A stretch of 64,000 bases of DNA from positions 137,145 through 201,144 of the IMG/VR virus record IMGVR_UViG_3300025012_000029; one strand, 5' to 3'. The position numbers were made by a program, and so were the translations under genes. The stretch is from a virus. Lineage: Duplodnaviria; Caudoviricetes. Of this stretch, positions 43,276 to 64,000 are shown in pieces. Below the pieces are notes generated by a model. That model was not told where the DNA came from and made no database searches. It saw nothing but the letters and a program-made list of their open reading frames with translations. Position 1 is the first letter of the stretch. Every line of letters starts with the position of its first letter.

Positions 43276-44120
43276 TACATATTTTCACCAAGAATATTAA
43301 AGAATTCAGGACGATTTTTTGACCAAGTAATATTGGGACGATTCGCATTCTTTTTAAAAGTCATTGGGTCGGTAACGTAAGCATTCATATAAGATTCTAG
43401 TAATGTTATTGTTTTGTCGTATGTTCTAAATGAATTCCAAAATGCCCTTCCGAATGTTGTTCCATACGAAACATGATCGTCGTCTGTAGCAGAAATAAAA
43501 ATGTATTCAGATAGCCGTTCCTCATCTTCAATGGTTCCCCAATAACAGAAATCAGTAAATACAATACCAATACGTGGATTTATTGTTGATAATATTTCTA
43601 TAAACATTTCCTTAGTGAGATTTTCTACTTTATTGAGAGCAAAAGCTGACTTTCTTATATTTCCAACTTTATTTCCATGTCCAGTCATATAAATAAGCAA
43701 AGAATCATTTTCCGTTACATGTGTTTTAAGCCATCCAAACATAATCAAAATTGATTTTTCATTGGTTGAGTCTGTGATTGGGAATACCGCCGGGTTCCCA
43801 CCCTCCGAGTCAAAAATGAATATATCCCTTCTATTATATCCTTGTTCTATGAGCACCTGGTATGCTAGTGAAAGATTATTCCTATGTCTATCTTCAGAAT
43901 TGCCAGCAATCAAAACAGCATAATGATGCTGTGCTTTATCTTCGTTAGCGCCGAGAAGCTTTAATCTATTTTCCAAACGAATTGGAGATGGGGGAATGTA
44001 AACTGAATAAGTCATGCGGAATGTTTCCGCACAACCTACTGTTAGCAGTAACAAAATATAACTGAATAGTTGCCACACATAATAAGTAGTGTTAACGGAA
44101 AGTGTGAGAATCGAACTCAC
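43275..44120 (-). CDS. Caspase-fold peptidase (C13/legumain-like), probable lipoprotein; true start likely MWQLFSY
   Basis: HYAVLIAG, LLIYMTGHG, FTDFCYWG (His-Gly and Cys dyad); LLTVGC lipobox; called start lies inside a tRNA. Confidence 0.75.
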   Translation of the reverse strand: MSSILTLSVNTTYYVWQLFSYILLLLTVGCAETFRMTYSVYIPPSPIRLENRLKLLGANEDKAQHHYAVLIAGNSEDRHRNNLSLAYQVLIEQGYNRRDIFIFDSEGGNPAVFPITDSTNEKSILIMFGWLKTHVTENDSLLIYMTGHGNKVGNIRKSAFALNKVENLTKEMFIEILSTINPRIGIVFTDFCYWGTIEDEERLSEYIFISATDDDHVSYGTTFGRAFWNSFRTYDKTITLLESYMNAYVTDPMTFKKNANRPNITWSKNRPEFFNILGENM

Positions 44121-44163
44121 TCAGGAAATTTAGCAAATTTCCGTCTCTCCAAGTAGACTTTCC
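44096..44163 (-). tRNA. Atypical tRNA-Ser(GCT), reduced D-arm and no long variable arm
   Basis: GGAAAGT/ACTTTCC acceptor, G73, 6-bp anticodon stem, loop TTGCTAA, TTCGATT T-loop. Confidence 0.6.
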
Positions 44164-44167
44164 AAAA

Positions 44168-44241
44168 TGTTTCGGGGTGGATTCGAACCACCATCGCCCA
44201 CGCCTTCAACGTGGCGCTCTACCAATTGGAGCTACCGAAAC
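44168..44241 (-). tRNA. tRNA-Phe(GAA)
   Basis: Canonical cloverleaf, loop TTGAAGG. Confidence 0.9.
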
Positions 44242-44321
44242 AAAAAGCCCCATTACAAGGCTTATGTTACGACATAAATGTCTTATTTATTTAAGAATTT
44301 TCTAATTGTTAGGTTTCGAAA

Positions 44322-44555
44322 TTAGAAACTAGCGTCGTAGGTTTGCTCTGTCGAGACAGAACCATCAGCATTGCGCACGCGAAGTGTGGTATTGATACCA
44401 AAGTCAGAAGCAGCAAGACGAGCTCGCCTTCGCCCCTCTTGTTCCGCTTCACGCCGGGTCTCCGTTCGCTTAACGCAAGTACCCTTTCCAGTGACTACCT
44501 TCCAGCCACCAATATTTCTATCCGAGCGAACTTCATATAGCCTATGATTTTTCAT
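44322..44555 (-). CDS. Small DUF2188-like protein
   Basis: GGWKV...TRREAEQEGRRRAR...VRNADGS...TY pattern. Confidence 0.6.
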   Translation of the reverse strand: MKNHRLYEVRSDRNIGGWKVVTGKGTCVKRTETRREAEQEGRRRARLAASDFGINTTLRVRNADGSVSTEQTYDASF

Positions 44556-44608
44556 TATTAATTATTACCTCTTTGTTTTTAAATCTCAATATTTCATTGA
44601 GTATCTTT

Positions 44609-44637
44609 ACTTTACAGCATTTTGTTTGCTGTGTCAA
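44609..44637 (-). promoter_or_regulatory. Sigma70-like promoter
   Basis: TTGACA-17 nt-TAAAGT. Confidence 0.5.
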
Positions 44638-44657
44638 TAGGAAAATTTCTTTTCCTA

Positions 44658-44730
44658 CGTCTCTGGCAGGGTTCGAACCTGCTACCTCATTTTTAGGGGA
44701 AATGCGTTCTTCCTTATGAACTACAGAGAC
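44658..44730 (-). tRNA. tRNA-Arg(CCT) with C33
   Basis: GTCTCTG/CAGAGAC acceptor; loop CCCCTAA. Confidence 0.8.
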
Positions 44731-44748
44731 ATTTAGCATAAAATCTCA

Positions 44749-44819
44749 AGCCTATATAGGGAATTAAACCCTAGTTTCAACTTTACCAAAGTTGTGTATT
44801 ATCACTATACTATACAGGC
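44749..44819 (-). tRNA. tRNA-Thr(GGT), degenerate T-loop
   Basis: CAACT-TTGGTAA-AGTTG; T-loop TTTAATT. Confidence 0.7.
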
Positions 44820-45467
44820 AAAATACTTGTCAAACACTTTTTCAAATAATTTCATTGTTTCTTTTAATTCATTTTTGTGATCTTTGAGATAATCTTTTAA
44901 CCCAGAATTCAGTCCAGTGCTTAAATAAGCATGTATTTCGTCATCCAAAACACTTTCATCATACATATTGTCATAAAGAAATTTTCTTATCGCTTTGTTT
45001 AATTCTTTAGGAATTGATTTGAGAAGTGTTTTCATTTCTTCTTTATATTCTGGTATCATATTCCAAAAAGCATGTGATAATTCATGCTTATAAGTGCTTT
45101 CATCGCCTTTTTTGATTCCTATTAAATAAAATTCTTTTCCATATCTTTTTCTCATTGTATTGAATAATTTTTTCATGAAAAGATCATATTTGTTAATATC
45201 TGGAATTCCTTTTTTAAAAACATCATGAATTACACATCCAGAAATATTAAATCCGCCCCAGTCGTTAGGATATGTAAAACAACCTCTACCAAATGATTTA
45301 GAATACCATTCCATATAATCTATAAGAGAAAAAACATTATTTCTGAAAGATGGATTAGGTGATTCATAATATTCTTGAAATCTCAAGAAGTGCATTGCTA
45401 GATCATATTCGCTATCAAACGATAAAACAAATATTTTTGGATACACTTCATTGAATTCAAATTTCAT
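44805..45467 (-). CDS. Conserved hypothetical phage protein with HExxH
   Basis: FLRFQEYYESP, GFNISG, HELSHA. Confidence 0.7.
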   Translation of the reverse strand: MKFEFNEVYPKIFVLSFDSEYDLAMHFLRFQEYYESPNPSFRNNVFSLIDYMEWYSKSFGRGCFTYPNDWGGFNISGCVIHDVFKKGIPDINKYDLFMKKLFNTMRKRYGKEFYLIGIKKGDESTYKHELSHAFWNMIPEYKEEMKTLLKSIPKELNKAIRKFLYDNMYDESVLDDEIHAYLSTGLNSGLKDYLKDHKNELKETMKLFEKVFDKYFACIV

Positions 45468-45468
45468 T

Positions 45469-45540
45469 TGCTGACAAGAAGATTCGCACTTCTACCTATT
45501 ACTTACGGGGCAATAATACTTCTAATTATACTATGTCAGC
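45469..45540 (-). tRNA. tRNA-Thr(CGT) with C33 and TGC T-loop
   Basis: GCTGACA/TGTCAGC acceptor; loop CCCGTAA; T-loop TGCGAAT. Confidence 0.7.
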
Positions 45541-45544
45541 TCTA

Positions 45545-45919
45545 TTAGAAAAGTAAACGAACATTATGATGTCTATCAGAAATCTTAGATAATTCTTTCT
45601 TTATCACTTCTTCCCATATGTTGAATTTGTTTGCCAATCCAGAACCTAATTGGGAAATTAGCCAAAGCGTATTAGGTGATTTCCTTATTTCAAATTCAAG
45701 TTTAGATAATTCTTTTTCAAATACTTTTCTGTATTCTTCTGGTTTATAAAAACTATCATCGTTGTTATTTGGATATTTCTTTGTGATAAATCCATATGTA
45801 TTTGGTTCACTTCGAAACATCGCTGCGCCAGCAAAACCTTTTCTTAACCGATTGTCTCCATATACAAAAATTGTATTAGGGTTTTTTCGAAGGTATTCTT
45901 TTGTTATTAACATAACCAC
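45545..45919 (-). CDS. Hypothetical protein, macro-domain/DUF7831-like
   Basis: IFVYGDN...GFAGAA...TKKYP...LGSGLA. Confidence 0.65.
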   Translation of the reverse strand: MVMLITKEYLRKNPNTIFVYGDNRLRKGFAGAAMFRSEPNTYGFITKKYPNNNDDSFYKPEEYRKVFEKELSKLEFEIRKSPNTLWLISQLGSGLANKFNIWEEVIKKELSKISDRHHNVRLLF

Positions 45920-45925
45920 TCTCCA

Positions 45926-46001
45926 TGAACACGAAAGGATTCGAACCTTTGCTGTCCGACTGATTTCTCTCCCGGATGCCGTCCCGCTTGGCTACGTGTC
46001 C
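45926..46001 (-). tRNA. tRNA-like gene with a 12-nt anticodon loop; identity undefined
   Basis: GGACACG/CGTGTTC acceptor, normal D and T arms; TCCGG-GAGAGAAATCAG-TCGGA. Confidence 0.55.
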
Positions 46002-46011
46002 AATATTTAAA

Positions 46012-46698
46012 TCAGGTCCATAAATATTTTCTTAATTTTATGAGCTTATCAAGATTATCGTCATCTTTTCTCTCAAACTCTTCTTTCTTTTTAGAAAATT
46101 CTTCCCATTTGGGATTTTCGAAAAAATGAGAAGTATCCCATATTCTACATCCTGGATGTTCTGGAGATTCTTTGAATTTTATCGATAAATCCATGCCATC
46201 ACAAATATGATGTATTTCATCATACTCTTTTTCTCTGTCTTCTTTCCACCAATGATAAAGTTTAAATATTTCCTCATAAACTCTAGTTGCTTCCTCATTG
46301 TGTTTCTTTTTATTTTCTGTTGAGTGTTCTTCTTCGCTTAATTCATCAAAACAACCAATTTGGCGCTTAAGCATACCTAAACCATCTTCTTTTTCAACAA
46401 ATTCTACAAGACAATTAAAACAAGCATGGAACATTCTCCAATCTTGATCCATCCATCCATATCGATATTCTTTGGTTCGAAGGTCTAACATATGATATCG
46501 GTTGATGGTGTGACATCTAATCCAATACCAAATATCATGAAAGGGACGCTTAATATCCCTTAATGCGTCTAATACAGCATGCTTGATTTTTTGTTTAACC
46601 ATTAAATTTCTCCATTTTATTATCGTTATTATATTTTCCTCATAAATTATACTGGGTAGGGGATTTGCACTCCTGCGAAAGGTATGTAACACCTTCAT
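46012..46698 (-). CDS. Conserved hypothetical phage protein; true start likely MVKQK
   Basis: YGWMDQDWRMFHACFNCLVEFVEKE; called start lies inside tRNA-Val. Confidence 0.65.
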   Translation of the reverse strand: MKVLHTFRRSANPLPSIIYEENIITIIKWRNLMVKQKIKHAVLDALRDIKRPFHDIWYWIRCHTINRYHMLDLRTKEYRYGWMDQDWRMFHACFNCLVEFVEKEDGLGMLKRQIGCFDELSEEEHSTENKKKHNEEATRVYEEIFKLYHWWKEDREKEYDEIHHICDGMDLSIKFKESPEHPGCRIWDTSHFFENPKWEEFSKKKEEFERKDDDNLDKLIKLRKYLWT

Positions 46699-46720
46699 GC
46701 TACTTTTACATCAACCCAGT
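46650..46720 (-). tRNA. tRNA-Val(TAC)
   Basis: AAGGT-GTTACAT-ACCTT; T-loop TGCAAAT. Confidence 0.7.
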
Positions 46721-46721
46721 C

Positions 46722-46950
46722 TATTTTTCTTTTTGTTTCTTCCAGAAAATGTGATTGTTTGACTATGACAATTAGGACACAACAATCGTAGATTTTCCAA
46801 TCTATTGTCTGTTCGTATTCCATTTGTGTGGTCTAATTGTAAAGTAATTGATTTTCCATTCCACATCGGTTCCATTTTACATATGTTAACATTTTTCTTC
46901 TAAAATATTTTCATCTAATAATCGTTTTCTCAGATTTGTTGACCAAATAT
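46722..46950 (-). pseudogene. Truncated/frameshifted HNH endonuclease
   Basis: WNGKSITLQLDHTNG..DNRLENLRLLCPNCHSQT with a disrupted upstream LRKRLL..ILEEKC. Confidence 0.75.
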
Positions 46951-46969
46951 ACTCACTATAATTGTGGTG

Positions 46970-47040
46970 TTGCCCCACTAAGATTCGAACTTAGAACAAA
47001 AATTTCAGAGACTTTTATTTTGCCATTAAACTATGGGGCA
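46970..47040 (-). tRNA. tRNA-Gln(CTG)
   Basis: TGCCCCA/TGGGGCA acceptor; loop CTCTGAA. Confidence 0.8.
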
Positions 47041-47041
47041 G

Positions 47042-47130
47042 CGGAGTGTAGAAGAATCGAACTTCTGTGAGCTTATGATCTCAACCTCTGCTTTCGAAAC
47101 AGGTGCTTTTCCAAACTCAGCCAACACTCC
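47042..47130 (-). tRNA. tRNA-Ser(CGA)
   Basis: Long variable arm, G73, loop TTCGAAA. Confidence 0.85.
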
Positions 47131-47363
47131 TAATCAATAACGTTATGTTTATATTTTTTAAGTTCTTTTCTAATAATTTCTTTTAGAACTGGTGTTGGTT
47201 CAGATTTTCCTTCTCGCCATCTTTTAATTGATGGACGTGAACAATCGAACATCTCTGAGACATCCTCATCGTAAACTTCACATTCTTTCATTAGTAATGT
47301 TATTTCTTCAGCCCAAGATATTTCTTTGTTCATACGGAAGATAGAGGATTCGAACCCCTGCAC
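47130..47363 (-). CDS. Small HTH protein; true start likely MNKEIS
   Basis: VSEMFDCSRPSIKRWREGKSEP. Confidence 0.6.
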   Translation of the reverse strand: MQGFESSIFRMNKEISWAEEITLLMKECEVYDEDVSEMFDCSRPSIKRWREGKSEPTPVLKEIIRKELKKYKHNVID

Positions 47364-47422
47364 GACTGATTACGTGACACCAGTTTTCAAGACTGGAACC
47401 TTTCCAACTCGGTCAATCTTCC
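47335..47422 (-). tRNA. tRNA-Ser(TGA)
   Basis: CCAGT-CTTGAAA-ACTGG; long variable arm. Confidence 0.9.
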
Positions 47423-47688
47423 ACAGCATTAACACTATACTCTTCGGACTTTTTTAATATCAGCCTAAACCGATCATGATCTTCTAACCTTAGCATAAAC
47501 GAATCAAAATGTCCATATTTACATTTGTATCCAAAAACATATTTTAAAGCAATCCAAATTCTTTTATACCAACTATTCCATTGATTCAAAAATACAGAAG
47601 CGTAGATATATCCATCTTCATCATCAATGTTAAATTTCAATGTATGTTCATCTGAATAACATTGGCATTCAAAATGTTCTGTATCCAT
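47413..47688 (-). CDS. Hypothetical phage protein
   Basis: FECQCYSDEH...RIWIALKYVFGYKCKYGHFD. Confidence 0.7.
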   Translation of the reverse strand: MDTEHFECQCYSDEHTLKFNIDDEDGYIYASVFLNQWNSWYKRIWIALKYVFGYKCKYGHFDSFMLRLEDHDRFRLILKKSEEYSVNAVED

Positions 47689-47710
47689 TATATCTCCAAT
47701 CTAATTAATA

Positions 47711-47947
47711 TTATTTTCTTACCAAAAGAAGCATTGTCGTGGAACCAATTATGAACCCAAAAGCAGAAAAAAAAGTAAGACGAAGCCTTTCCATAAAGTC
47801 TTTTGTATCGATAAACCACATATACAAAATCATATTAACGAAAGGGAGAATGAAACCAGTGATCGCTTGAGTTATAATCCATCCATGAGCGACAGAATAA
47901 GAATATAAAGAGATCCAAAAATCTGCGATCGCGCTTAATATCGTCAC
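47711..47947 (-). CDS. Small membrane protein
   Basis: Two to three hydrophobic segments. Confidence 0.55.
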   Translation of the reverse strand: MTILSAIADFWISLYSYSVAHGWIITQAITGFILPFVNMILYMWFIDTKDFMERLRLTFFSAFGFIIGSTTMLLLVRK

Positions 47948-48034
47948 AAACAGGTAACGTGTAACGTCTGAATGGGTTCTCCCATATTTTGTTTAATAGA
48001 TTTTTCTCCACCAGGGTCATCCATAAATTATGTT

Positions 48035-48253
48035 TTAATCCTCAACAACTTTAGCATATACAAAAATTAATTGATATATGTTTCCTAATCTAAATAGCTT
48101 AATATCAATATAGTTGCTGACACAAACATTATTCTCCTCCAGAAATTTAGAGAATTCATATTCAATTGTTCCTATAGTTGAAGCAAGTAATATTTTCGTT
48201 CTTAACACTCTTGCTTTTAGCTCAATATTATCGAAAACGGAGCAAGAGTTCAT
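48035..48253 (-). CDS. Hypothetical protein
   Basis: ORF in operon. Confidence 0.5.
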   Translation of the reverse strand: MNSCSVFDNIELKARVLRTKILLASTIGTIEYEFSKFLEENNVCVSNYIDIKLFRLGNIYQLIFVYAKVVED

Positions 48254-48513
48254 TGTTCTTTGAACTCCACAATAGAAAGGAAATGTTTAATTGTTTTTTC
48301 AACAAACTCTTTACCCATACATTCTGTATCGCAGATTATTTTACTTCCTTTTTTATAGAAAGCAATTTGTCCAAAACCAAGATGTTCAACACCCCAATTA
48401 AGAATAAATCCGCCATCATTTCCAGTGTGTTTATCCCACACTTCCAGTTCAACATATTTGAATTGTGGATTCTTTTTAGCTTCAGCAATTTCTTCTTTTG
48501 TTCCAAAAACCAT
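48250..48513 (-). CDS. Hypothetical protein
   Basis: ORF in operon. Confidence 0.6.
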   Translation of the reverse strand: MVFGTKEEIAEAKKNPQFKYVELEVWDKHTGNDGGFILNWGVEHLGFGQIAFYKKGSKIICDTECMGKEFVEKTIKHFLSIVEFKEQ

Positions 48514-48774
48514 TTACTTCCTCATATCTTTCTCTTCAACATCTTCCCAATAATGTTTACCATCTTTATCCATCGACCAAACATCCATCGTTTCTTCTTC
48601 ATTAAAAAAGACTACGTTTTCTGAATCTACAGCTCCTTGTTCAATTTTTCGAACAATTTCTCTTTCAAGAGAACGATACATCTTATGAAATAATTTTTTA
48701 TCTTTTTTTTCAGATGCGTGACAAAGAGATCCAACGTTTCCGAATATTTTTGTTTTACGGATTGATCTGCTCAT
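48514..48774 (-). CDS. Hypothetical basic protein
   Basis: MSRSIRK...SEKKDKK...W.M.KDGK. Confidence 0.65.
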   Translation of the reverse strand: MSRSIRKTKIFGNVGSLCHASEKKDKKLFHKMYRSLEREIVRKIEQGAVDSENVVFFNEEETMDVWSMDKDGKHYWEDVEEKDMRK

Positions 48775-48956
48775 AAAGTAATTATGTTCCCATTGACAGT
48801 AACATTAAGAAAACTGTTTAATGAATTTAATTTTAAGTTTTCTAATTAAATCTTTGAGTTTCTTATTTTCTTTGTCAAGTTTACGCTTGTCAAGTTGTAA
48901 CTTGATAACTTCATTTTTAAGACGCTGTATTTCTATTCTATAATCCATATATTGAT

Positions 48957-49030
48957 TGGAATGTATCGGAATCGAACCGATTCTTAAAGAATGCAAATCT
49001 TTCGTGCAAACCCATTAACACTTACACCCC
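48957..49030 (-). tRNA. tRNA-Ala(TGC)
   Basis: G3.U70 pair; AAAGA-TTTGCAT-TCTTT. Confidence 0.85.
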
Positions 49031-49248
49031 AATATGATCGATTTTCGTTCAGTCAATCCATCTCTCAACTTGTAATCGCGCGTAGATAGTTTATTATCAT
49101 TTGGAAGTCATAGTTTCCTCGTTCCATTTGTAAACAACATTGTATCATTGTATTACACACAAATCAATCATCGCACGCACGCGAACATTTGCTAAGAAGG
49201 TTTTTTATGATAGCTCACGCCGCACTATCACCCTCTCGTTACGTGATC

Positions 49249-49851
49249 TTAATCGGATAATTCTCCATGCCAATATAAGCATGTTGCCATATAGTCTCTC
49301 CATGAATCTGGAGCACCTTTATTCCAAAATATAGTTTGGAAGATGTTCTTTGGTTTACTTGGAATAGATAACAAAGTCATTCCAGATTTATGAAGAGGTT
49401 TATCTTGTTTTCGTCTATTACAATCTACACAACAAACGACAACATTTTTCCATTCCGTTATCCCACCTAATGCCCTTGGAACAATGTGATCTAGTGTAAA
49501 CTCTTCTGTCGTACAATGAGTTCCACAATATTGGCATTTTCCTTTATCTCTTGCATAAACATTATCTCTTGAGAATTTTACTCTTCTCACTTTTTTGAAA
49601 ACGTTTTTGACAAATCTGATAATGGAAGGAACTTTGAATGCTTGATGAGCTGAGCGAACCCATAAGTCAGCATATTCTTCTACAATTTCAACCTTATCCA
49701 TCATATAAAGACAAAAAGCACGTTGCCAGCTAATAATTCCTAGTGGTTGATATGAAGTATCGAGCACTAGCGTTTTTGCGTTCACATCCATAATTCTTTT
49801 CCTTTTTAAGTGGAGCGCAGGGGAGTCGAACCCCTTTCCGAAAAACTCCAT
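49249..49851 (-). CDS. HNH endonuclease (McrA/HNH_5-like); true start likely MDVNAK
   Basis: TLVLDTSYQPL, CQYCG, TLDHIVPRALGG, NVVVCCVDCNRRK. Confidence 0.9.
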   Translation of the reverse strand: MEFFGKGFDSPALHLKRKRIMDVNAKTLVLDTSYQPLGIISWQRAFCLYMMDKVEIVEEYADLWVRSAHQAFKVPSIIRFVKNVFKKVRRVKFSRDNVYARDKGKCQYCGTHCTTEEFTLDHIVPRALGGITEWKNVVVCCVDCNRRKQDKPLHKSGMTLLSIPSKPKNIFQTIFWNKGAPDSWRDYMATCLYWHGELSD

Positions 49852-49888
49852 TTGTTGGATTATCTTTCGTCGAAACCATTAGCGCCCC
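49811..49888 (-). ncRNA. Mini-tmRNA: tRNA-like domain only (78 nt), no mRNA-like domain
   Basis: GGGGCGC-TAATGGTTTCGAC-GAAAGAT..TCCA ACAAA TGGA..GTTTTTC-GGAA-AGGGG TTCGACT CCCCT-GCGCTCC-A; G3.U70. Confidence 0.8.
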
Positions 49889-49896
49889 ATATTTTT

Positions 49897-49925
49897 ACTA
49901 TAAATAACTATTCATCATTTGTCAA
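49897..49925 (-). promoter_or_regulatory. Sigma70-like promoter for the mini-tmRNA/HNH unit
   Basis: TTGACA-17 nt-TATAGT ending 9 nt before G1. Confidence 0.75.
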
Positions 49926-49960
49926 ATAGATTTGACATTCGCAATTATGAATGATAAGAA

Positions 49961-50278
49961 TTAATCATGATTTTTAAGCATTCTATCAACTTCTTCCTTA
50001 TCTCTTGTTTGATAAAAGATTAATCTTATTCTTTCTAAAATCTTTTTTCTATTCTTGAGTCTTGTTTTTGCTGGGAATGTTGACGTTAAAATTCCAAACA
50101 ACGCATGATGCGAGGTTATTTTCTCAACATCTATCAACTCAAGAATTTTATCAATGATATCAAACCTATTCCTGTTCATTAAATTATGCATCATATCAAA
50201 CATATAATCTAATTGTAAATCATCTGATAAATTTGTATTTTCAATTATATTTCTTGCGATCAATTCAGAATTATTCAT
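49961..50278 (-). CDS. Hypothetical protein
   Basis: Helical ORF between RNA genes. Confidence 0.6.
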   Translation of the reverse strand: MNNSELIARNIIENTNLSDDLQLDYMFDMMHNLMNRNRFDIIDKILELIDVEKITSHHALFGILTSTFPAKTRLKNRKKILERIRLIFYQTRDKEEVDRMLKNHD

Positions 50279-50296
50279 ATTTATTCACACATTAAG

Positions 50297-50370
50297 AGGA
50301 TAGGGAGGGACTTGCGCCCACTAAAATTCGTTTTGCAGACGAATGCCTCGACTACTTCAGCTTCCTATCC
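50297..50370 (-). tRNA. tRNA-Cys(GCA)
   Basis: TTCGT-CTGCAAA-ACGAA; U73; T-loop CGCAAGT. Confidence 0.8.
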
Positions 50371-50375
50371 ACAAA

Positions 50376-50585
50376 TCATTTAATTGCTTTCTTTTCACAT
50401 AAAGATAACATCACTAACGCAATTATGTGCTTTGCCTCAGATAAACATTCGTCAGCGGGTACATTGGAAGACAAAATGAATTGTTTTGTAAGATAACAAT
50501 TTACCTTCTTTTCTAATTCATTATCTCCGTCCATTTGTTCCCAAGTTACTTTACCTTTAACAACTCTACTTATTTCTTTTTTCAT
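50376..50585 (-). CDS. Hypothetical protein
   Basis: Small ORF. Confidence 0.5.
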   Translation of the reverse strand: MKKEISRVVKGKVTWEQMDGDNELEKKVNCYLTKQFILSSNVPADECLSEAKHIIALVMLSLCEKKAIK

Positions 50586-50588
50586 AAC

Positions 50589-50665
50589 ATTGTGGTGACG
50601 AGTCGAACGCCTTGAAATAACTTTTGGAGGGTTACCCGAATCCGATTCGGTTTAATCTACCACAA
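50589..50665 (-). tRNA. Degenerate tRNA-Trp(CCA)
   Basis: TTGTGGT/ACCACAA acceptor; loop CTCCAAA; weak anticodon and T stems. Confidence 0.5.
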
Positions 50666-50692
50666 TATAATTTAGATGAATTCATCTAAAAG

Positions 50693-50766
50693 CACCCCTA
50701 GGAGGATTTAAACCCACCAACTCAAAGTTCGTAGCTTTGTGTGATATTCAGTTTCACTATAGGGGT
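50693..50766 (-). tRNA. tRNA-Arg(ACG)
   Basis: CAAAG-CTACGAA-CTTTG. Confidence 0.85.
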
Positions 50767-50771
50767 ATAAT

Positions 50772-50944
50772 TCTAATAGAGCAGATTTCCACTGCGTTGA
50801 GGATAGGCGTGATATGAGTAACGCCTCGTTTTACATCTTGTCCGCCAGCTTACCATACCCATCTGGCTGGTCTTGTCCGCACCGTATCACTACACCGAAC
50901 AAGTTCTCCTTCAACTGATTACCTCCTAAGGAGGTTCTATTAGA
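50772..50944 (-). ncRNA. Unannotated 173-nt structured RNA with tRNA-like outer frame
   Basis: 9-bp terminal stem TCTAATAGA/TCTATTAGA, ACCTCC/GGAGGT, GTTGA(A)GGA/TCCTCAAC, AGGCGT/ACGCCT, GCAG-TGGAAAT-CTGC. Confidence 0.7.
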
Positions 50945-51016
50945 TGCGAATACCAAGAATCGAACTTGGAAAAAAAGTTTATCAGACTTTTATGATAACC
51001 ATTTCATCATATTCGC
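50945..51016 (-). tRNA. tRNA-Ile(GAT)
   Basis: AAAGT-CTGATAA-ACTTT. Confidence 0.88.
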
Positions 51017-51020
51017 CCAT

Positions 51021-51113
51021 TGGGGAGTCAGGGATTCGAACCCCGCTACCGCAAACCAGTATCGCTATTTGTTAACGCGGACTTGTTTTACAGACAAGTG
51101 CGATTAACTCACC
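51021..51113 (-). tRNA. Atypical tRNA-Tyr(GTA)
   Basis: CTTGT-CTGTAAA-ACAAG; about 36-nt variable region; no canonical D-arm; 5' boundary uncertain. Confidence 0.6.
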
Positions 51114-51201
51114 GTTTAGTATACATTCCACTTCGGTATACTAGCGAACTGAACTTCTTGTCAATCCTCTCTACAATGGAGGGACGCACAGATAAAGTGG
51201 A

Positions 51202-51272
51202 TCGCGATTACCAGAATCGAACTGGTAAATTAATTTTATGAGAATTATGTGATTCCATTTCACCAAATCGCG
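51202..51272 (-). tRNA. tRNA-CAT (elongator Met or Ile2)
   Basis: TAATT-CTCATAA-AATTA; fully paired acceptor stem. Confidence 0.85.
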
Positions 51273-51533
51273 TTATTTTCTCTTTTTTCTCATTTCTATT
51301 TCATGAAGTTCAATTGAAATATCTATACATTTTTTCTCAATTACTTCATATTCTACAATCTCACAATCCTTGTATACAAGTGGATTTCCACTTTTGACAA
51401 TAAAAACAAGATGTAATTTCAATTGTCCCTCTCCGTTCCATGTCTTTCCTTTTTCAGAAAATCTTGGCTTACTTCCGCCTTTCGAAAATAAACCTTCTTG
51501 ATTTCTTATTTTATAGATCATATTAATTATCAA
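51273..51533 (-). CDS. Hypothetical phage protein
   Basis: YKIRNQEGLFSKGGSKPRFSEKGKTW. Confidence 0.65.
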   Translation of the reverse strand: MIINMIYKIRNQEGLFSKGGSKPRFSEKGKTWNGEGQLKLHLVFIVKSGNPLVYKDCEIVEYEVIEKKCIDISIELHEIEMRKKRK

Positions 51534-51540
51534 AGATAAA

Positions 51541-51615
51541 TTGCGGGTACAAGAGTCGAACTTGTTATCTCGAAGGTTATGAGCCTTGAATGATTATCCG
51601 TTTCACCCACCCGCT
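51541..51615 (-). tRNA. Initiator-like tRNA-fMet(CAT)
   Basis: Unpaired 1:72 (A/A); CAAGG-CTCATAA-CCTT. Confidence 0.8.
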
Positions 51616-51979
51616 ATATATTGTTGTTTTTTCTTCTTTTCTGTTCGTCATACATTTCTATCCACTCAAATAAAGGAATGAAAACTTCTGTATGTTTATT
51701 ATCATCCCACATAATCCAACCCTGAAGTTCTTTAACCAATTCATTAATTCTAAATCTTTCTCGACCAGTCAGATCTGATAAATGTTCAGAGCCGTTAATA
51801 TCTTCCCAAACTCTATATTCGATATATCCACACCATCCAGCGCAAGTTTCACGTTCTGAGAACTGCGAGATTATATTTTTGAGTTCATTAAAAGCTTCTT
51901 TATTCATAATAATATTACCATGCTCACAGAGAGATTCGAACTCCCAACGCACACGGTCTAAACGTGTTGACTCTACCAA
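51614..51979 (-). CDS. Hypothetical protein; true start likely MNKEAF
   Basis: SERETCAGW..IEYRVW; called start lies inside tRNA-Leu. Confidence 0.6.
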   Translation of the reverse strand: MVESTRLDRVRWEFESLCEHGNIIMNKEAFNELKNIISQFSERETCAGWCGYIEYRVWEDINGSEHLSDLTGRERFRINELVKELQGWIMWDDNKHTEVFIPLFEWIEMYDEQKRRKNNNI

Positions 51980-51994
51980 TTGGTCTATGTGAGC
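51921..51994 (-). tRNA. tRNA-Leu(TAG) with short variable loop
   Basis: ACACG-TTTAGAC-CGTGT; A73. Confidence 0.8.
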
Positions 51995-52230
51995 TTTTTT
52001 TTCATTCTTTCTCTAACTTCTTCATGTGTATAATACCACTTCATTTTACAACAAGCAAGTCCCAAAGTAATGTGACAGCAAGTTCTGAAATCTAAAAGAT
52101 CATCGCTTTTTCTAGCATAAAGACTATTCAAGAAATAAAATTTAATCGCTTCATAAGGAACGAGAAAATAATATCTTCTTCTCCATAGTTTAACATACCA
52201 AGAACAATATTGGAATCGTTTTTCTTCCAT
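51985..52230 (-). CDS. Hypothetical protein
   Basis: WYVKLWRRRYY...KMKWYYT.EEV. Confidence 0.6.
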   Translation of the reverse strand: MEEKRFQYCSWYVKLWRRRYYFLVPYEAIKFYFLNSLYARKSDDLLDFRTCCHITLGLACCKMKWYYTHEEVRERMKKKLT

Positions 52231-52241
52231 AAATTAATTAG

Positions 52242-52314
52242 CACTCCCGATAGGACTCAAACCCATACCAAAGCGTTAGAAGCGCCTTATGCTATTCTTT
52301 TACACTACGGGAGC
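52242..52314 (-). tRNA. tRNA-Arg(TCT)
   Basis: AGGCG-CTTCTAA-CGCTT. Confidence 0.85.
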
Positions 52315-52319
52315 AAAAG

Positions 52320-52393
52320 GTTGTATGATGAGAATTGCACTCACTAACAACAGCTTCACAGGCTGTCCGCTAACTATTTTGCGTTCATACAAC
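52320..52393 (-). tRNA. tRNA-His(GTG)
   Basis: G-1:C73; ACAGC-CTGTGAA-GCTGT; T-loop TGCAATT. Confidence 0.85.
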
Positions 52394-52495
52394 ATAGCAA
52401 TAATAAATAATATTTACTTTTCATTTAACTCATCACAACAAAAACAACAAGAAAAAAAGTTGTTATTACAATTGGAATGTATTTTATATCCATAG

Positions 52496-52579
52496 TGCAG
52501 GTAGAGGGACTCGAACCCCCACGCCCTCACGGGCGGAAGCTCTTAAGGCTTCTGCGGCTGCCAATTACGCCATACCTGC
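52496..52579 (-). tRNA. tRNA-Leu(TAA)
   Basis: GAAGC-CTTAAGA-GCTTC; long variable arm. Confidence 0.92.
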
Positions 52580-52601
52580 ATTTTATTTAACTTACAATTC
52601 T

Positions 52602-52630
52602 ATATTACCAGTTATTATTGATTCTGTCAA
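52602..52630 (-). promoter_or_regulatory. Sigma70-like promoter
   Basis: TTGACA-17 nt-TAATAT upstream of tRNA-Leu(TAA). Confidence 0.5.
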
Positions 52631-52644
52631 TAAGTAATTTTTAA

Positions 52645-52717
52645 TCAGGGTGGTGAGAGTCGCACTCACAATCTCATCACTCCGAATGACGCAGGTTTCT
52701 ATCAACCCTTCACCCTG
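52645..52717 (-). tRNA. tRNA-Pro(CGG)
   Basis: CAGGGTG/CACCCTG acceptor; loop TTCGGAG; T-loop TGCGACT. Confidence 0.75.
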
Positions 52718-52792
52718 TTAAATCGGATAACGTGCTAGCTTACACCACACAACTTAAGAGTCTGACCGTATCCCAGCGACTCCTTTATCCTA

Positions 52793-52866
52793 TACCTTTG
52801 ATCAGATTCGAACTGATAACAATTTGTTTTTGAGACAAATGACTCTACCAATTGGTCTACAAAGGC
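52793..52866 (-). tRNA. tRNA-Leu(CAA) with short variable loop
   Basis: TTTGT-CTCAAAA-ACAAA; D-arm identical to tRNA-Leu(TAG). Confidence 0.8.
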
Positions 52867-52869
52867 TCA

Positions 52870-52943
52870 CGTACCCTAAAAGAATCGAACTTTTCTTGTA
52901 CAGTTTAACAGACTGTCGCAATCTCCAGACATGCCAAGGGTAC
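52870..52943 (-). tRNA. tRNA-Asn(GTT)
   Basis: ACAGT-CTGTTAA-ACTGT; G73. Confidence 0.85.
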
Positions 52944-52956
52944 ATAATTTATAATA

Positions 52957-53028
52957 AGCTTCTTGCCGGTACTGCCCCGGCTTATCCAGTTTACAAGACT
53001 GGCATATCACTTTTTATATTTAAGAAGC
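52957..53028 (-). tRNA. tRNA-Thr(TGT)
   Basis: CCAGT-CTTGTAA-ACTGG; T-loop GGCAGTA. Confidence 0.75.
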
Positions 53029-53040
53029 AAAGTGTTGGTT

Positions 53041-53487
53041 TTACCCTATAGCCAACAAGGAATTAATCATTTTACAAATTGAATTTACAGTTTTTGTCCC
53101 GAAAAGAAGTTTAACCGACTTAATGTCTTTTTTTTCTAAAATCAAATGGATATTGTCTGCCCCTACTGGGTTCATACTCCATATAATGACAGGAACATCT
53201 TTCCACTCTATCTTTTTAGCTGCATCAGATCCGTTTTTATAAACAGAATATGTTGTTTTTCCATAGCTTGGATGTCCTGAGCAAACATAATGATCATAAT
53301 CTAAATCATGATCCAACACAATCATATCAGGAGGATTATTTTTGTTTTCATTCATCCAAATTTCGAAATCATTCACTTGAGTTTTCCAGATAATGTTAAC
53401 TTTTTCAGTCAAACCGAAGTGAGATAATTTCTTTTTCAGAAAAATTATTCTCTCTTCAGAATCTTCAAGAATTAAAATATTTATCAT
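53041..53487 (-). CDS. Stand-alone receiver-fold protein (cyclic-phosphate-processing REC-like)
   Basis: ILILEDSEER, IVLDHDL, NGSD, IIWSMNPVGA. Confidence 0.7.
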   Translation of the reverse strand: MINILILEDSEERIIFLKKKLSHFGLTEKVNIIWKTQVNDFEIWMNENKNNPPDMIVLDHDLDYDHYVCSGHPSYGKTTYSVYKNGSDAAKKIEWKDVPVIIWSMNPVGADNIHLILEKKDIKSVKLLFGTKTVNSICKMINSLLAIG

Positions 53488-53490
53488 AAG

Positions 53491-53562
53491 CGCCTCATAG
53501 GAGTTTCGATCTCCTTATTTTATCGTGACAGGATAATGTGATAGCCAGTTCACCAATGAGGC
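53491..53562 (-). tRNA. tRNA-Asp(GTC)
   Basis: TTATC-CTGTCAC-GATAA; G73. Confidence 0.85.
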
Positions 53563-53566
53563 AAAA

Positions 53567-53691
53567 GACACGACAAACAGTTAAATCTTTACTTTAACCA
53601 CGCTAGGATAATTTCGTATTGTCAATACAGCCGTTTCCTTCATATACCCATCAGAAGGTTTACAATAATATTATTGATTTGCTCTCGTGTC
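53567..53691 (-). ncRNA. Candidate structured RNA, about 125 nt
   Basis: GACACGA/TCGTGTC closing stem extended by GCAAAT/GTTTGT; internal CCTTC/GAAGG and GTTAAA/TTTAAC hairpins. Confidence 0.45.
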
Positions 53692-53804
53692 GTAACAACA
53701 AATTAAGTATAAATATAAAATACTATCATAGTCACCTTTATGTCAATCCATTTTTCGAATTCCTTTTCAAGTTTTGAATACTTTGTCCTTTTACATTTAT
53801 AAAA

Positions 53805-53878
53805 TCTAGGTAGCAAGATTCGAACTTGCGGTCTTTTGTTCCCAAAACAAACGTGATACCAAGCTTCACCATACCTAG
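53805..53878 (-). tRNA. tRNA-Pro(TGG)
   Basis: TTTGT-TTTGGGA-ACAAA. Confidence 0.88.
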
Positions 53879-53921
53879 TCAAATAAAATATTCGAATCCG
53901 AAATCTAAACACAATTAAAAA

Positions 53922-53996
53922 TGGAACCGGAGAGAATTGAACTCTCGTTTCGACGGATTAAAAGTCCGCTGCAATGCCAACGTTTGCTACGATTCC
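53922..53996 (-). tRNA. tRNA-Lys(TTT)
   Basis: GCGGA-CTTTTAA-TCCGT. Confidence 0.88.
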
Positions 53997-54052
53997 GTAA
54001 TTTGCCAAATGGACAGTTTTGAATGGCAAGCCAATTAGCTATCCATCGGCAA

Positions 54053-54125
54053 TTGCCCCACAAAGACTCGAACTTTGACCAAAAGCTTCAAAGGCTTTCG
54101 TGCTTGCCAATTACACCATAGGGCA
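54053..54125 (-). tRNA. tRNA-Gln(TTG)
   Basis: AAAGC-CTTTGAA-GCTTT. Confidence 0.9.
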
Positions 54126-54178
54126 ATTGAAGCTCTTTAATTTATCATCCGCCAAAGAGCTTACGACATAAAGCGGGA

Positions 54179-54251
54179 TGCCCTTACTGGGAATCGAACC
54201 CGAGATTGAGAGTGTGAAAGACTCTTAGCCTAGCCATTAGCTGATAAGGGC
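54179..54251 (-). tRNA. tRNA-Glu(TTC)
   Basis: AGAGT-CTTTCAC-ACTCT. Confidence 0.88.
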
Positions 54252-54276
54252 ATAATTTTTGAACGCGTCAAAACAT

Positions 54277-54349
54277 AGCAATGCAAGAGACTCGAACTCT
54301 TACCTTTAGGTTGGAAGCCTAAAATGCTACCATTAAACACTAGCATTGC
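54277..54349 (-). tRNA. tRNA-Gly(TCC)
   Basis: TTAGG-CTTCCAA-CCTAA; U73. Confidence 0.88.
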
Positions 54350-54363
54350 ATTTGGCAATTATT

Positions 54364-54485
54364 CAATTGTCACAGACACAAACCCGCTGTTTTACCAAGG
54401 CCATTTTCCAAGCCTCAACCCTTTCGGCACAAGACGATAAACCGTCTCCGTGTCAGCTAAGTTGTCATTCCCCTAATCACAATTG
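54364..54485 (-). ncRNA. Candidate structured RNA, about 120 nt
   Basis: CAATTGT/ACAATTG closing stem, GACAC/GTGTC, GGAGACG/CGTCTT, CC-GAAA-GG, TTGAGGC/GCCTTGG. Confidence 0.5.
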
Positions 54486-54490
54486 ATTAA

Positions 54491-54519
54491 GGTTGAAAAG
54501 GCTTGAGCCTTTTCAATCC
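54491..54519. terminator. Strong hairpin (terminator or processing signal)
   Basis: GGTTGAAAAGGC-TTGA-GCCTTTTCAATCC. Confidence 0.55.
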
Positions 54520-54587
54520 GCCTGCATGGAATCGCACCATGCCGGGAGCTTTATAAGAACTCCTGAACCAACTAGGCCCACAGGCGG
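54517..54587 (-). tRNA. Atypical tRNA with TAT anticodon (Ile, AUA-reading)
   Basis: CCGCCTG/CAGGCGG acceptor; GGAGTT-CTTATAA-AGCTCC; 5-nt D-loop; T-loop TGCGATT. Confidence 0.6.
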
Positions 54588-63885: not shown

Positions 63886-64000
63886 GTTCTTTTTGATAGG
63901 TTATCGCACATCATTTTATATGCTTCTGTTTTAGATTCAATAGGTTTCTTTGTTATTGTTTGTCCTTTGCGAAAGCAAAGGACAGCATGACATCGCTTTC
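63869..64000. repeat. 132-bp direct repeat, copy 2
   Basis: Matches 61807..61938; encodes the same RCHAVLCFRKGQT...CSWVE tail. Confidence 0.9.

Follow-up and report, generated by a model that had tools for sequence, protein, structure and literature searches.

The window examined here is a 64,000-nt stretch of the genome of a 201-kb uncultured groundwater myovirus. Embedded among 27 tRNA genes of the same strand (minus strand, 44095..54587; ARAGORN, Rfam) is a gene for a 78-nt RNA (49888->49811, minus strand) that has all of the hallmarks of the tRNA-like domain (TLD) of tmRNA, without pseudoknots or a tag frame. This RNA is referred to below as the mini-tmRNA (a TLD-only or CDS-less tmRNA). 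The array includes a tRNA-Ala-UGC gene (48956-49031, minus strand; ARAGORN, Rfam), and an RtcB RNA ligase gene and a cREC_REC-like gene are close to the mini-tmRNA. CCA is encoded by none of the 27 phage tRNAs (0/27) and is not encoded in the mini-tmRNA gene, in which CUU follows the discriminator. Neither an SmpB gene nor a CCA-adding enzyme was found in the phage, and the 201-kb genome contains no match to Phage_integrase; the mini-tmRNA would thus depend on the host. In a search of sequencing runs, the locus was found in groundwater DNA runs alone, and its sequence words were absent from the metatranscriptomes of the same study.

The mini-tmRNA extends from G1 at 49888 to the discriminator A at 49811, as defined by its RF00023 score and fold (all elements are on the minus strand). 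The acceptor stem pairs a 5' strand of GGGGCGC (49882..49888) with a 3' strand of GCGCUCC (49812..49818) over 7/7 positions and includes a G3.U70 pair (G3 at 49886, U70 at 49814), which with the A73 discriminator gives the RNA its alanine identity elements. The 5' strand is followed by a 12-nt D-loop analogue (UAAUGGUUUCGA; 49870..49881) that has no D-stem and contains the tmRNA-type motif of GG and UUCGAC. The P2 helix (49839..49869) opens at C20-G50, the C being that of GAC, as expected of P2a; its 8 bp (49869-49862 with 49846-49839) enclose a 2-nt bulge and an apical hairpin (49859-49847) of 4 bp (UCCA/UGGA) and a loop of 5 nt (ACAAA). A GAA linker (49836..49838) joins P2 to the T-arm (49819..49835), which has a 5-bp stem (AGGGG/CCCCU) and the loop UUCGACU, of the GUUCRANUC type. 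The 31 nt between the D-loop analogue and the linker lie entirely within the P2 hairpin. The preliminary description of this DNA had reported a 78-nt TLD without an mRNA domain, with a tmRNA-type 5' end, no D-stem and a P2 closed by a 4-bp hairpin, and each of these elements is present at 49811-49888.

The Rfam tmRNA model RF00023 recognizes the mini-tmRNA with 54.5 bits (gathering score 47; E-value: 1.2e-18), aligning it to model positions 1-374 such that both model ends are matched and the interior is deleted. In Rfam clan competition, the tmRNA model beats the tRNA model. The minimum free energy (MFE) fold is exactly the TLD plan, with all four helices perfectly paired (-30.7 kcal/mol, z = -3.25, 0/200 shuffles equally stable), and 0.00 chance occurrences of the architecture pattern are expected in the window. 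The mRNA-like domain (resume codon, tag frame and stop codon) is absent, as are pseudoknots PK1-PK4, for which 78 nt leave no room. ARAGORN, run on the window, calls neither the mini-tmRNA nor a tag peptide. Identity as a tRNA-Ala was rejected given the missing D-stem, the lack of an ARAGORN call and a sole internal loop of 5 nt (ACAAA). A control, the tRNA-Ala of phage Lacusarx, scores 37.9 bits with RF00023, below the cut-off of 47. The Lacusarx "tmRNA" had been considered as a cultured analogue and was rejected because RF00023 finds only this tRNA-Ala; the Lacusarx tmRNA is probably of another form. Taken with the family-wide covariation presented below, the Rfam score and the fold support classification of the mini-tmRNA as an anticodon-less, alanine-type TLD-only tmRNA.

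Upstream of the gene is a predicted sigma-70-type promoter (49897..49925, minus strand) with a -35 hexamer TTGACA (49925-49920), a 17-nt spacer and a -10 hexamer TATAGT (49902-49897). With 11/12 consensus matches, it is among the three best sites of the 11-kb tRNA region (44-55 kb). The hexamers and spacer are as previously described, whereas the distance from the end of the -10 hexamer to G1 is 8 nt rather than the 9 nt given. The promoter had also been called dedicated to the RNA, which does not strictly hold. An ORF of 180 aa encoding an HNH endonuclease (49249..49791, minus strand; Pfam HNH_5 E-value: 5.3e-15, HNH E-value: 2.8e-12) begins 19 nt past the 3' end of the mini-tmRNA, its start placed by start-codon analysis behind an AGGA-type ribosome-binding site. 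No terminator was found between the two, and so both are probably carried on one transcript. A weak terminator-like hairpin after the HNH gene, identified by its match to the consensus (49171..49184, minus strand; 5 pairs, 3 of them G-C), may mark the end of the transcription unit. The HNH endonuclease was rejected as a recurrent partner of mini-tmRNAs, because no HNH homolog adjoins the 117 other mini-tmRNAs among the matches listed.

A megablast search of 3 kb against cultured phages returned no close DNA relative, and distant blastn searches with the RNA returned pieces of the T-arm and acceptor only, which in Streptomyces phages are part of a full 280-nt tmRNA. Relatives of RtcB are found at eight viral loci (48-63% identity), and in the seven scanned with Rfam there is no tmRNA-like gene within 10 kb. 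An upstream ORF of 105 aa has no relatives in the viral collection. In five partial genomes related by their major head protein (54-57% identity, 8-85% complete), nothing above the cut-off corresponds to either a mini or a full tmRNA, an absence that was counted against the explanation favoured below; a 12.8-bit match in the most complete of them was rejected as a degenerate tRNA-like sequence. No relative with a full tmRNA at the site of the mini-tmRNA was found.

Homologs of the RNA itself are numerous. The architecture pattern occurs in at least 119 viral stretches of IMG/VR, in RNAs of 58-87 nt, and the TLD-only plan (5-bp T stem, G3.U70 and discriminator A) is present in 117/119 among the matches listed, the discriminator being A in the same proportion (117/119). 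A control scan of prokaryotes (one genome from each of 185,579 species, 596 Gb) gave 23 pattern matches, 17 of them with the full plan and mostly on small MAG contigs. The pattern is thus enriched in viruses (at least 119 matches against 23). Covariation was assessed on 89 distinct family sequences among the matches listed. The 3' acceptor strand with U70 had been left out of the search pattern, so the G3.U70 pair was unconstrained, and U70 is opposite G3 in 89/89 sequences. C20-G50 is present in 88/89 and the D-loop analogue is 12 nt long in 61/89. The linker is GAC in 56 of the 89, GAT in 11 and GAA in 9; the GAA of the mini-tmRNA, in place of the consensus GAC, was counted against the explanation favoured below.

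The P2, acceptor and T stems covary strongly. P2 is 91.5% paired across the family, with two-sided changes at 7/8 pairs; pairing at its pairs 1-5 reaches 92-100% in the 89 sequences (27-57% in slid registers), and each of these pairs occurs as 5-6 pair types. The T stem is 100% paired and 3/5 of its pairs covary. Scored formally, covariation amounts to 0.582, compared with 0.135 for shuffled alignments (0/500 reach 0.582) and 0.08-0.13 for slid ones, and an alignment-free pair count agrees with this result. The apical hairpin is 49% paired on the MAFFT family alignment, where this region is length-variable and poorly aligned; in single-sequence folds it is found in 43/75 long forms. The apical hairpin sequence of the mini-tmRNA is common to its relatives L026 and L168-L174, the latter being variants with a GGG-N acceptor. 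These kin are 68-80% identical with compensated stems, and in two independent phages they are inside arrays of 24 and 26 tRNA genes, which argues that the mini-tmRNA is not a recent deletion. Across the family, a tRNA gene lies within 500 nt in about one member in five among the matches listed. Together these data show that the TLD-only form is a common one in phages, where it mostly lacks an annotation, that its alanine identity is selected for and that it is found repeatedly within tRNA arrays. The preliminary description had proposed a search for independent covarying homologs, of which many exist, and had considered a full tmRNA in close relatives, lost here by recent deletion, for which no relative provides an example; both outcomes favour a real gene.

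The closest known counterpart belongs to mycobacteriophage DS6A, whose tmRNA is described as "TLD only" or CDS-less (tmRNA Website tmID 11587 / Phage__Mycobacterium.9; Mao et al. 2009, cited by PMC4131195 and PMC11915505). The listing of this RNA in those two papers contradicts the earlier suggestion that one-piece phage RNAs of this kind were undescribed. The DS6A RNA was located at JN698994 28478-28560, where it is unannotated in the GenBank record, and it folds on the same plan. Both are one-piece phage RNAs (79 nt in DS6A, 78 nt here). In each, the acceptor contains G3.U70, the D-loop analogue (GGUGGUCGAC in DS6A, GGUUUCGAC here) has no D-stem, an A-rich bulge and a short hairpin close P2, and a T-arm and a discriminator A are present, whereas an encoded CCA, pseudoknots and a tag frame are lacking. 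The DS6A RNA scores 43.2 bits with RF00023, below the cut-off, compared with 54.5 here. DS6A is a 60-kb siphovirus of Mycobacterium tuberculosis whose solitary RNA gene is flanked by gp33 and a DNA polymerase III gene, whereas the mini-tmRNA of the 201-kb groundwater myovirus is in a 27-tRNA array, preceded by a sigma-70-type promoter of its own and followed by an HNH gene. In vivo data are reported for the DS6A form only: its expression in E. coli is reported in PMC11915505 to inhibit the endogenous tmRNA. Titration of SmpB is proposed as the cause in PMC4131195, in which inhibition is also reported not to depend on chargeability. The two functions put forward in the preliminary description, titration and tag-less action, are also the two that the literature considers for DS6A.

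The mini-tmRNA shares with canonical SsrA (RF00023) the acceptor with G3.U70, A73, GG..UUCGAC, the C20-G50 start of P2a, a GAN linker and the T-arm. It differs in having no PK1-PK4, resume codon, tag frame or stop codon; about 290 of the 374 model positions are missing, and without these mRNA-like parts it is unable to act as an mRNA. Full-length phage tmRNAs (those of Wakanda, the mycobacteriophage Bxz1 group and Bacillus phage G, and the two-piece forms of pelagiphages) are also derived from ssrA and often found in tRNA arrays (PMC4131195, PMC9004378); in Streptomyces phage Wakanda the order is tRNA-Arg, a 280-nt tmRNA and tRNA-Asn. These retain the mRNA-like domain and tag and are found by ARAGORN, whereas the mini-tmRNA has neither and is missed. 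Published censuses of phage tmRNAs used ARAGORN (PMC9004378, PMC7162821), by which the mini-tmRNA is not called; DS6A is the single phage example named in the papers searched. By description only, the RNA can also be likened to the CDS-less tmRNAs of mitochondria (jakobid and others) and Mallomonadaceae plastids, which are approximately TLD-sized, have no tag frame and rely on an SmpB encoded elsewhere (PMC11915505; PMC3590771). These organellar RNAs are inherited vertically and serve their own translation system, rather than being virus genes acting on a host. Conservation of the mitochondrial form goes hand in hand with that of SmpB, and a part in dealing with incomplete mRNAs has been suggested for it (PMC11915505). 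Synthetic TLD-only fragments are the same minimal molecule in content, but are laboratory constructs. In vitro, a truncated tmRNA of this kind can receive the peptidyl group on stalled ribosomes when SmpB and EF-Tu are present (Shimizu and Ueda 2006, cited by PMC3895274). The behaviour of such fragments indicates possible activities of the natural RNA rather than its actual one.

The mini-tmRNA is probably a functional tag-less gene of the DS6A kind, its most likely role being to compete with host tmRNA for SmpB and so block tagging. We infer expression, processing, charging, SmpB binding and a benefit to the phage along the following lines. Host RNA polymerase would transcribe the gene, probably early, from the sigma-70-type promoter; transcription would begin no more than 1-2 nt from the mature 5' end, if not exactly there, and run on into the HNH gene. 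Because there is neither an encoded CCA nor a CCA-adding enzyme of the phage, 3'-end trimming and CCA addition would fall to the host. Alanylation by host AlaRS would follow, directed by G3.U70 and A73, and the elbow formed by the D-loop and T-loop would be bound by host SmpB. As it has no pseudoknots, resume codon or tag frame, the mini-tmRNA cannot complete trans-translation. It would most likely draw SmpB away from the tmRNA of the host, and probably compete with that RNA for EF-Tu, stalled ribosomes and AlaRS as well. ssrA tagging and tmRNA-dependent rescue would be shut down during infection, and truncated or stalled phage products would be spared.

This model leaves one feature of the family unaccounted for: since inhibition reportedly occurs without charging, an RNA that acts purely as an SmpB sponge fails to explain the invariant G3.U70, an invariance that hints at action of the charged RNA on the ribosome. 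The main rival explanation, a role suggested for the CDS-less mitochondrial tmRNA, is ribosome rescue without tagging. The alanyl-mini-tmRNA, with SmpB and EF-Tu, would enter a stalled ribosome and accept the nascent chain, which would gain one alanine; with no resume frame, the peptidyl-RNA would be released or hydrolysed by host factors, freeing ribosomes and leaving phage products unmarked for proteolysis. We consider this explanation rather unlikely. It fits the constancy of G3.U70 (89/89) and of the discriminator A (117/119) among the matches listed, features retained even though chargeability is reportedly dispensable for inhibition (PMC4131195). It also fits the peptidyl transfer to TLD-only tmRNA in vitro (Shimizu and Ueda 2006, cited by PMC3895274) and the conservation of the mitochondrial form with SmpB (PMC11915505). 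However, the one in vivo result for the phage form, that of DS6A in E. coli, is a reported inhibition of tmRNA, and no hydrolase or release factor gene is encoded beside the mini-tmRNA in the window. Moreover, we know of no release mechanism for peptidyl-TLD, so a ribosome holding peptidyl-TLD could be blocked rather than rescued.

The tRNA-rich setting might point to a different role, that of an anti-defence decoy: as part of a counter-defence kit comprising the tRNA array and RtcB, a stable tRNA-like RNA with no anticodon loop would occupy factors of the host besides SmpB, for instance RNase R, nucleases that target tRNA or tmRNA, or sensors of translation stress. Besides the position of the mini-tmRNA in a 27-tRNA array close to the RtcB RNA ligase and the cREC_REC-like gene, this explanation draws on a phage anti-CRISPR complex containing RNase R-binding t(m)RNA fragments and on the regulation of RNase R by tmRNA-SmpB (PMC11662646). 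It is nonetheless improbable: the features conserved in the family are AlaRS and SmpB-type elements and not a nuclease target, only about one family member in five among the matches listed has a tRNA gene within 500 nt, and the RNA is absent from the seven RtcB-related loci scanned. Still less credible is a non-functional remnant, which would derive from a full tmRNA gene decaying after the loss of its interior, from a piece of the host ssrA of the attP type, or from a copied and then degenerated phage tRNA-Ala. The absence of the gene from the nearest phage relatives (five partial genomes) and the presence of full tmRNAs in the tRNA arrays of other phages, such as Streptomyces phage Wakanda, are consistent with such a relic, but the four perfectly paired helices, the near-consensus promoter and a 58-87-nt plan maintained with compensatory changes in more than 100 diverged viral sequences are not, and covariation largely refutes it. 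Fragments of ssrA at attP sites carry the 3' part only; an attP relic was rejected because both TLD halves are present and pair and the 201-kb genome has no integrase. The tRNA-Ala is the best-aligning phage tRNA and has the 9-mer ACGAAAGAT in common with the mini-tmRNA, but their acceptor and T stems differ and the mini-tmRNA has no anticodon arm. Origin from the tRNA-Ala was rejected on the basis of these stems, which leaves the shared 9-mer unexplained.

Trans-translation is the main bacterial pathway for ribosome rescue and quality control, is pursued as an antibiotic target and is a pathway on which some phages depend. The locus is a clear example, from a large uncultured myovirus, of a kind of RNA that is known but under-described. 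A bolder, tentative reading is that TLD-only mini-tmRNAs are a tool that phages use widely and have maintained since ancient times, and that they work on the ribosome in their alanine-charged form rather than as a passive SmpB sponge. Together with SmpB and EF-Tu of the host, the charged RNA would enter stalled ribosomes and either free them without tagging or lock them, and the apical hairpin AAACCAACAAAUGGAG would be a second contact site. This hairpin is conserved in sequence in phages of 34-66% GC in which the RNA is in tRNA arrays, and a charged actor would explain why G3.U70 is never lost, even though inhibition by titration reportedly does not require charging. The G3.U70 pair provides a direct genetic handle for distinguishing an SmpB sponge from a charged actor on the ribosome. 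If the mini-tmRNA does block or redirect trans-translation, it would be a compact device for host takeover and a natural inhibitor of the pathway.

The minus strand of the window encodes a 78-nt mini-tmRNA (49888 to 49811), consisting of the tRNA-like domain (TLD) of tmRNA without pseudoknots or a tag frame. All of its elements lie on this strand. The 7-bp acceptor stem (GGGGCGC/GCGCUCC) includes G3.U70, and the D-arm position is occupied by a 12-nt unpaired segment, UAAUGGUUUCGA. The 8-bp helix that follows (P2) opens at C20-G50, exactly the pair at which P2a opens in canonical tmRNA, and leads through a 2-nt bulge to a hairpin of 4 bp capped by a 5-nt loop. P2 is joined through the 3-nt linker GAA to a 5-bp T-arm with the loop UUCGACU. 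Because CUU follows the discriminator A, the CCA end is not genomically encoded. The minimum free energy fold has the TLD plan (-30.7 kcal/mol, z = -3.25), and 0 of 200 shuffles were equally stable. The Rfam tmRNA model RF00023 matches at 54.5 bits (gathering score 47) over model positions 1-374, with both model ends aligned and the entire interior deleted. This model outscores the tRNA model in Rfam clan competition, and a control, tRNA-Ala of phage Lacusarx, scores just 37.9 bits on it. The chance expectation of the TLD-architecture pattern in the window is 0.00. The fold and the RF00023 score confirm, with minor corrections, the TLD-only RNA proposed at this locus in the preliminary description.

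That description held that no such phage RNA had been described, which is wrong: "Mycobacterium phage DS6A (TLD only)" is listed by Hudson, Lau and Williams (PMC4131195). The other CDS-less tmRNAs named are from mitochondria and two plastids only (PMC11915505). The DS6A RNA lies at JN698994 28478-28560, between gp33 and gp34, where it is unannotated in the record. It scores 43.2 bits on RF00023 and has the same plan as the window RNA (79 nt versus 78 nt). This precedent agrees with the proposed identity and mechanism, whereas the claim of novelty falls. Phage tRNA arrays can also contain full tmRNA genes, as in Streptomyces phage Wakanda. ARAGORN has been used in phage tmRNA surveys (PMC9004378; PMC7162821). 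Its tmRNA mode made 3 calls across the 117 homolog loci described below, so the class is nearly invisible in surveys of this kind; around the window site it called 27 tRNAs and not the mini-tmRNA.

An architecture pattern (GGGG, 7 nt, GGNTTCGAC, 15-45 nt, GGTTCRANTCC) matches at least 119 stretches in IMG/VR. Of these at least 119 viral matches, 117 (58-87 nt long) have the full plan: the T stem is 5 bp, the 3' acceptor strand can pair with the RNA's 5' terminus, G3 faces a U and the discriminator is A. None of these 3' features is in the search pattern. For the 89 distinct sequences, pairs were set by fixed offsets from invariant motifs, making the pairing count independent of alignment. Pairing at P2 pairs 1-5 is 92-100%, with five or six kinds of pair at each position, whereas slid registers give 27-57%. 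Covariation is also seen at acceptor pairs 5-6 and T-stem pairs 1-3 (99-100% paired), and all 89 sequences have G3.U70. Scored on an alignment of 74 sequences, covariation is 0.582; shuffles give 0.135, with none of 500 attaining the observed value, and slid controls give 0.08-0.13. Two-sided changes occur at 7 of 8 P2 pairs. The apical hairpin, which is variable in length and poorly aligned there, is 49% paired; when the 75 long forms are folded singly, 43 have an apical helix past an A-rich bulge. Independent covarying homologs, proposed earlier as a check, thus exist in number, and sequence comparison indicates that the family is large and under selection.

In one genome per species from 185,579 prokaryote species (596 Gb), the same pattern has just 23 matches, 17 with the full plan. 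The contrast with the at least 119 matches in IMG/VR marks the TLD-only form as characteristically viral. The prokaryote matches are mostly on small MAG contigs, some in bins labelled archaeal. Two such loci (L145 and L158) are on contigs binned as Candidatus Iainarchaeum and "archaeon ARS1334", and are likely mis-binned phage contigs; tmRNA genes in metagenomic archaeal genomes have been attributed to misbinning of bacterial sequences (PMC11915505).

A metagenome scan keyed on the apical hairpin of the window RNA found seven stretches, which have AAACCAACAAATGGAG in common with L026, a locus from the viral scan. These kin are 68-80% identical to the window RNA, and their acceptor, P2 and T stems are unlike those of the window and fully compensated. 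Two independent phages (L169 and L170, the latter equivalent to L173) have the mini-tmRNA embedded in tRNA arrays of 24 and 26 genes and in the same orientation as the tRNAs, an arrangement that the window shows too. Diverged kin with compensated stems in tRNA arrays indicate that the TLD-only form has been kept through long divergence. The apical hairpin and its A-rich 5' flank read AAACCAACAAATGGAG in L026 and L168-L174 and AAUCCAACAAAUGGAG in the window (49847-49861). Conservation of this hairpin across loci of 40-66% GC, while all the surrounding stems changed with compensation, suggests that it serves as a specific contact rather than just capping P2.

A recent deletion from a full tmRNA, named at the outset as a finding that would count against the proposal, is not what the relatives indicate: no full tmRNA occupies this site in any of those examined. 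The major-head-protein relatives (54-57% identity; 8-85% complete) and the seven scanned loci with related RtcB showed no tmRNA gene of either form, mini or full. The gene is patchy in this phage lineage, which suggests that it moves horizontally with array content.

The window is the final 64 kb of a 201,144-bp IMG/VR virus record from groundwater metagenomes. By its gene content the virus is a myovirus to which cultured phages are only remotely related. It encodes a tail sheath, GroEL, ribonucleotide reductase and a fragmented DNA polymerase, and its gp23-like major head protein is 38% identical to that of an uncultured huge phage, 36% to that of Microcystis phage Mel-JY01 and 33% to that of Rhodothermus phage RM378. 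Bases 14-123 of the record and its last 110 (window about 63891-64000) are reverse complements over 110 nt; the record either ends in inverted terminal repeats or contains a fold-back artefact of assembly. An 864-aa PhoH-like ATPase (27004-29598, minus strand) is interrupted between its N- and C-terminal halves by an insert that matches profiles of the Hint/intein and terminase/primase-like types. The phage protein closest to this ATPase carries the annotation "hedgehog/hint domain protein", and the ATPase is probably an intein-containing PhoH. A 398-aa protein (40353-41549, minus strand; PHROG "transposase" phrog_506, 2.1e-134) looks insertion-sequence-type and could point to the host.

The mini-tmRNA is surrounded by 27 same-strand tRNA genes (44.1-54.6 kb, minus strand; ARAGORN). 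Just upstream of the array is an RtcB RNA ligase gene (55798-57033, minus strand; 2.2e-122), and inside the array is a weak profile match to cREC_REC, a cyclic-phosphate processing receiver (53041-53487, minus strand); as a pair they resemble a tRNA-repair kit that goes with the array. Rfam calls a further tRNA (44.7 bits; 46650-46720, minus strand), absent from the ARAGORN output, that overlaps the start of ORF 46012-46698. A 54-aa ORF (46711-46875, minus strand) has a homolog (53% over 43 aa) at L173 12357-12485, inside the tRNA array of that otherwise unrelated, mini-tmRNA-carrying phage, and may be a small protein travelling with tRNA arrays. The array tRNA that aligns best to the mini-tmRNA, by far, is tRNA-Ala(UGC) (48956-49031). 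The two have the 9-mer ACGAAAGAT in common (mini-tmRNA 49862-49870), at the junction into the anticodon stem and into P2, respectively. The probability of such a match by chance is roughly estimated at ~0.02, and either coincidence or a trace of recombination could account for it. CCA is encoded by 0 of the 27 tRNAs, and neither a CCA-adding enzyme nor SmpB was found in the 201-kb genome, so maturation, charging and binding of the mini-tmRNA would rest entirely on host factors. An attP relic of a temperate phage was ruled out, as no integrase was found in the genome.

A sigma-70-type promoter (TTGACA 49925-49920, 17 nt, TATAGT 49902-49897, minus strand) precedes the RNA. It matches 11 of 12 consensus positions and is among the three best such sites of the 11-kb tRNA region. 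The hexamers and spacing stand as first described, and the gap to G1 is corrected from 9 to 8 nt, which puts the predicted start at, or 1-2 bases from, the mature 5' end. No terminator-like site was found directly after the RNA, and an HNH endonuclease ORF (HNH_5, 5.3e-15), preceded by an AGGA-type ribosome-binding site, begins at 49791 on the same strand, 19 nt past the discriminator; the promoter is therefore probably common to both. A weak terminator-like hairpin follows the HNH gene (49184-49171, minus strand). A longer ORF-finder version, with an ATG at 49851 in the apical loop and in frame through the RNA, was taken as an ORF-calling artefact.

The reading that we consider probable is as follows. 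The mini-tmRNA would be made early in infection, receive CCA and alanine from host enzymes, and bind host SmpB in competition with host tmRNA. In the infected cell, this competition would suppress both the tagging by ssrA and the rescue that depends on tmRNA. The reading builds on the anatomy, family selection and host dependence observed here; inhibition is known for DS6A only, whose RNA is reported in PMC11915505 to inhibit endogenous tmRNA in E. coli, and we infer the other steps. The main rival, which we judge rather unlikely, is that the charged RNA takes the nascent chain on a stalled ribosome and frees or locks the ribosome without tagging. TLD-only fragments accept nascent chains in vitro (PMC3895274). 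That G3.U70 never varies speaks for a role of charging; according to PMC4131195, a pure sponge would have no need of it. A decoy or anti-defence RNA is improbable, and a non-functional remnant, set beside the selection seen across the family, is more improbable still.

The window RNA thus adds a case to a known kind of which very little has been described. What makes it valuable is its clean anatomy, a tRNA-array setting common to diverged kin, and evidence from the family as a whole for selection on alanine identity.
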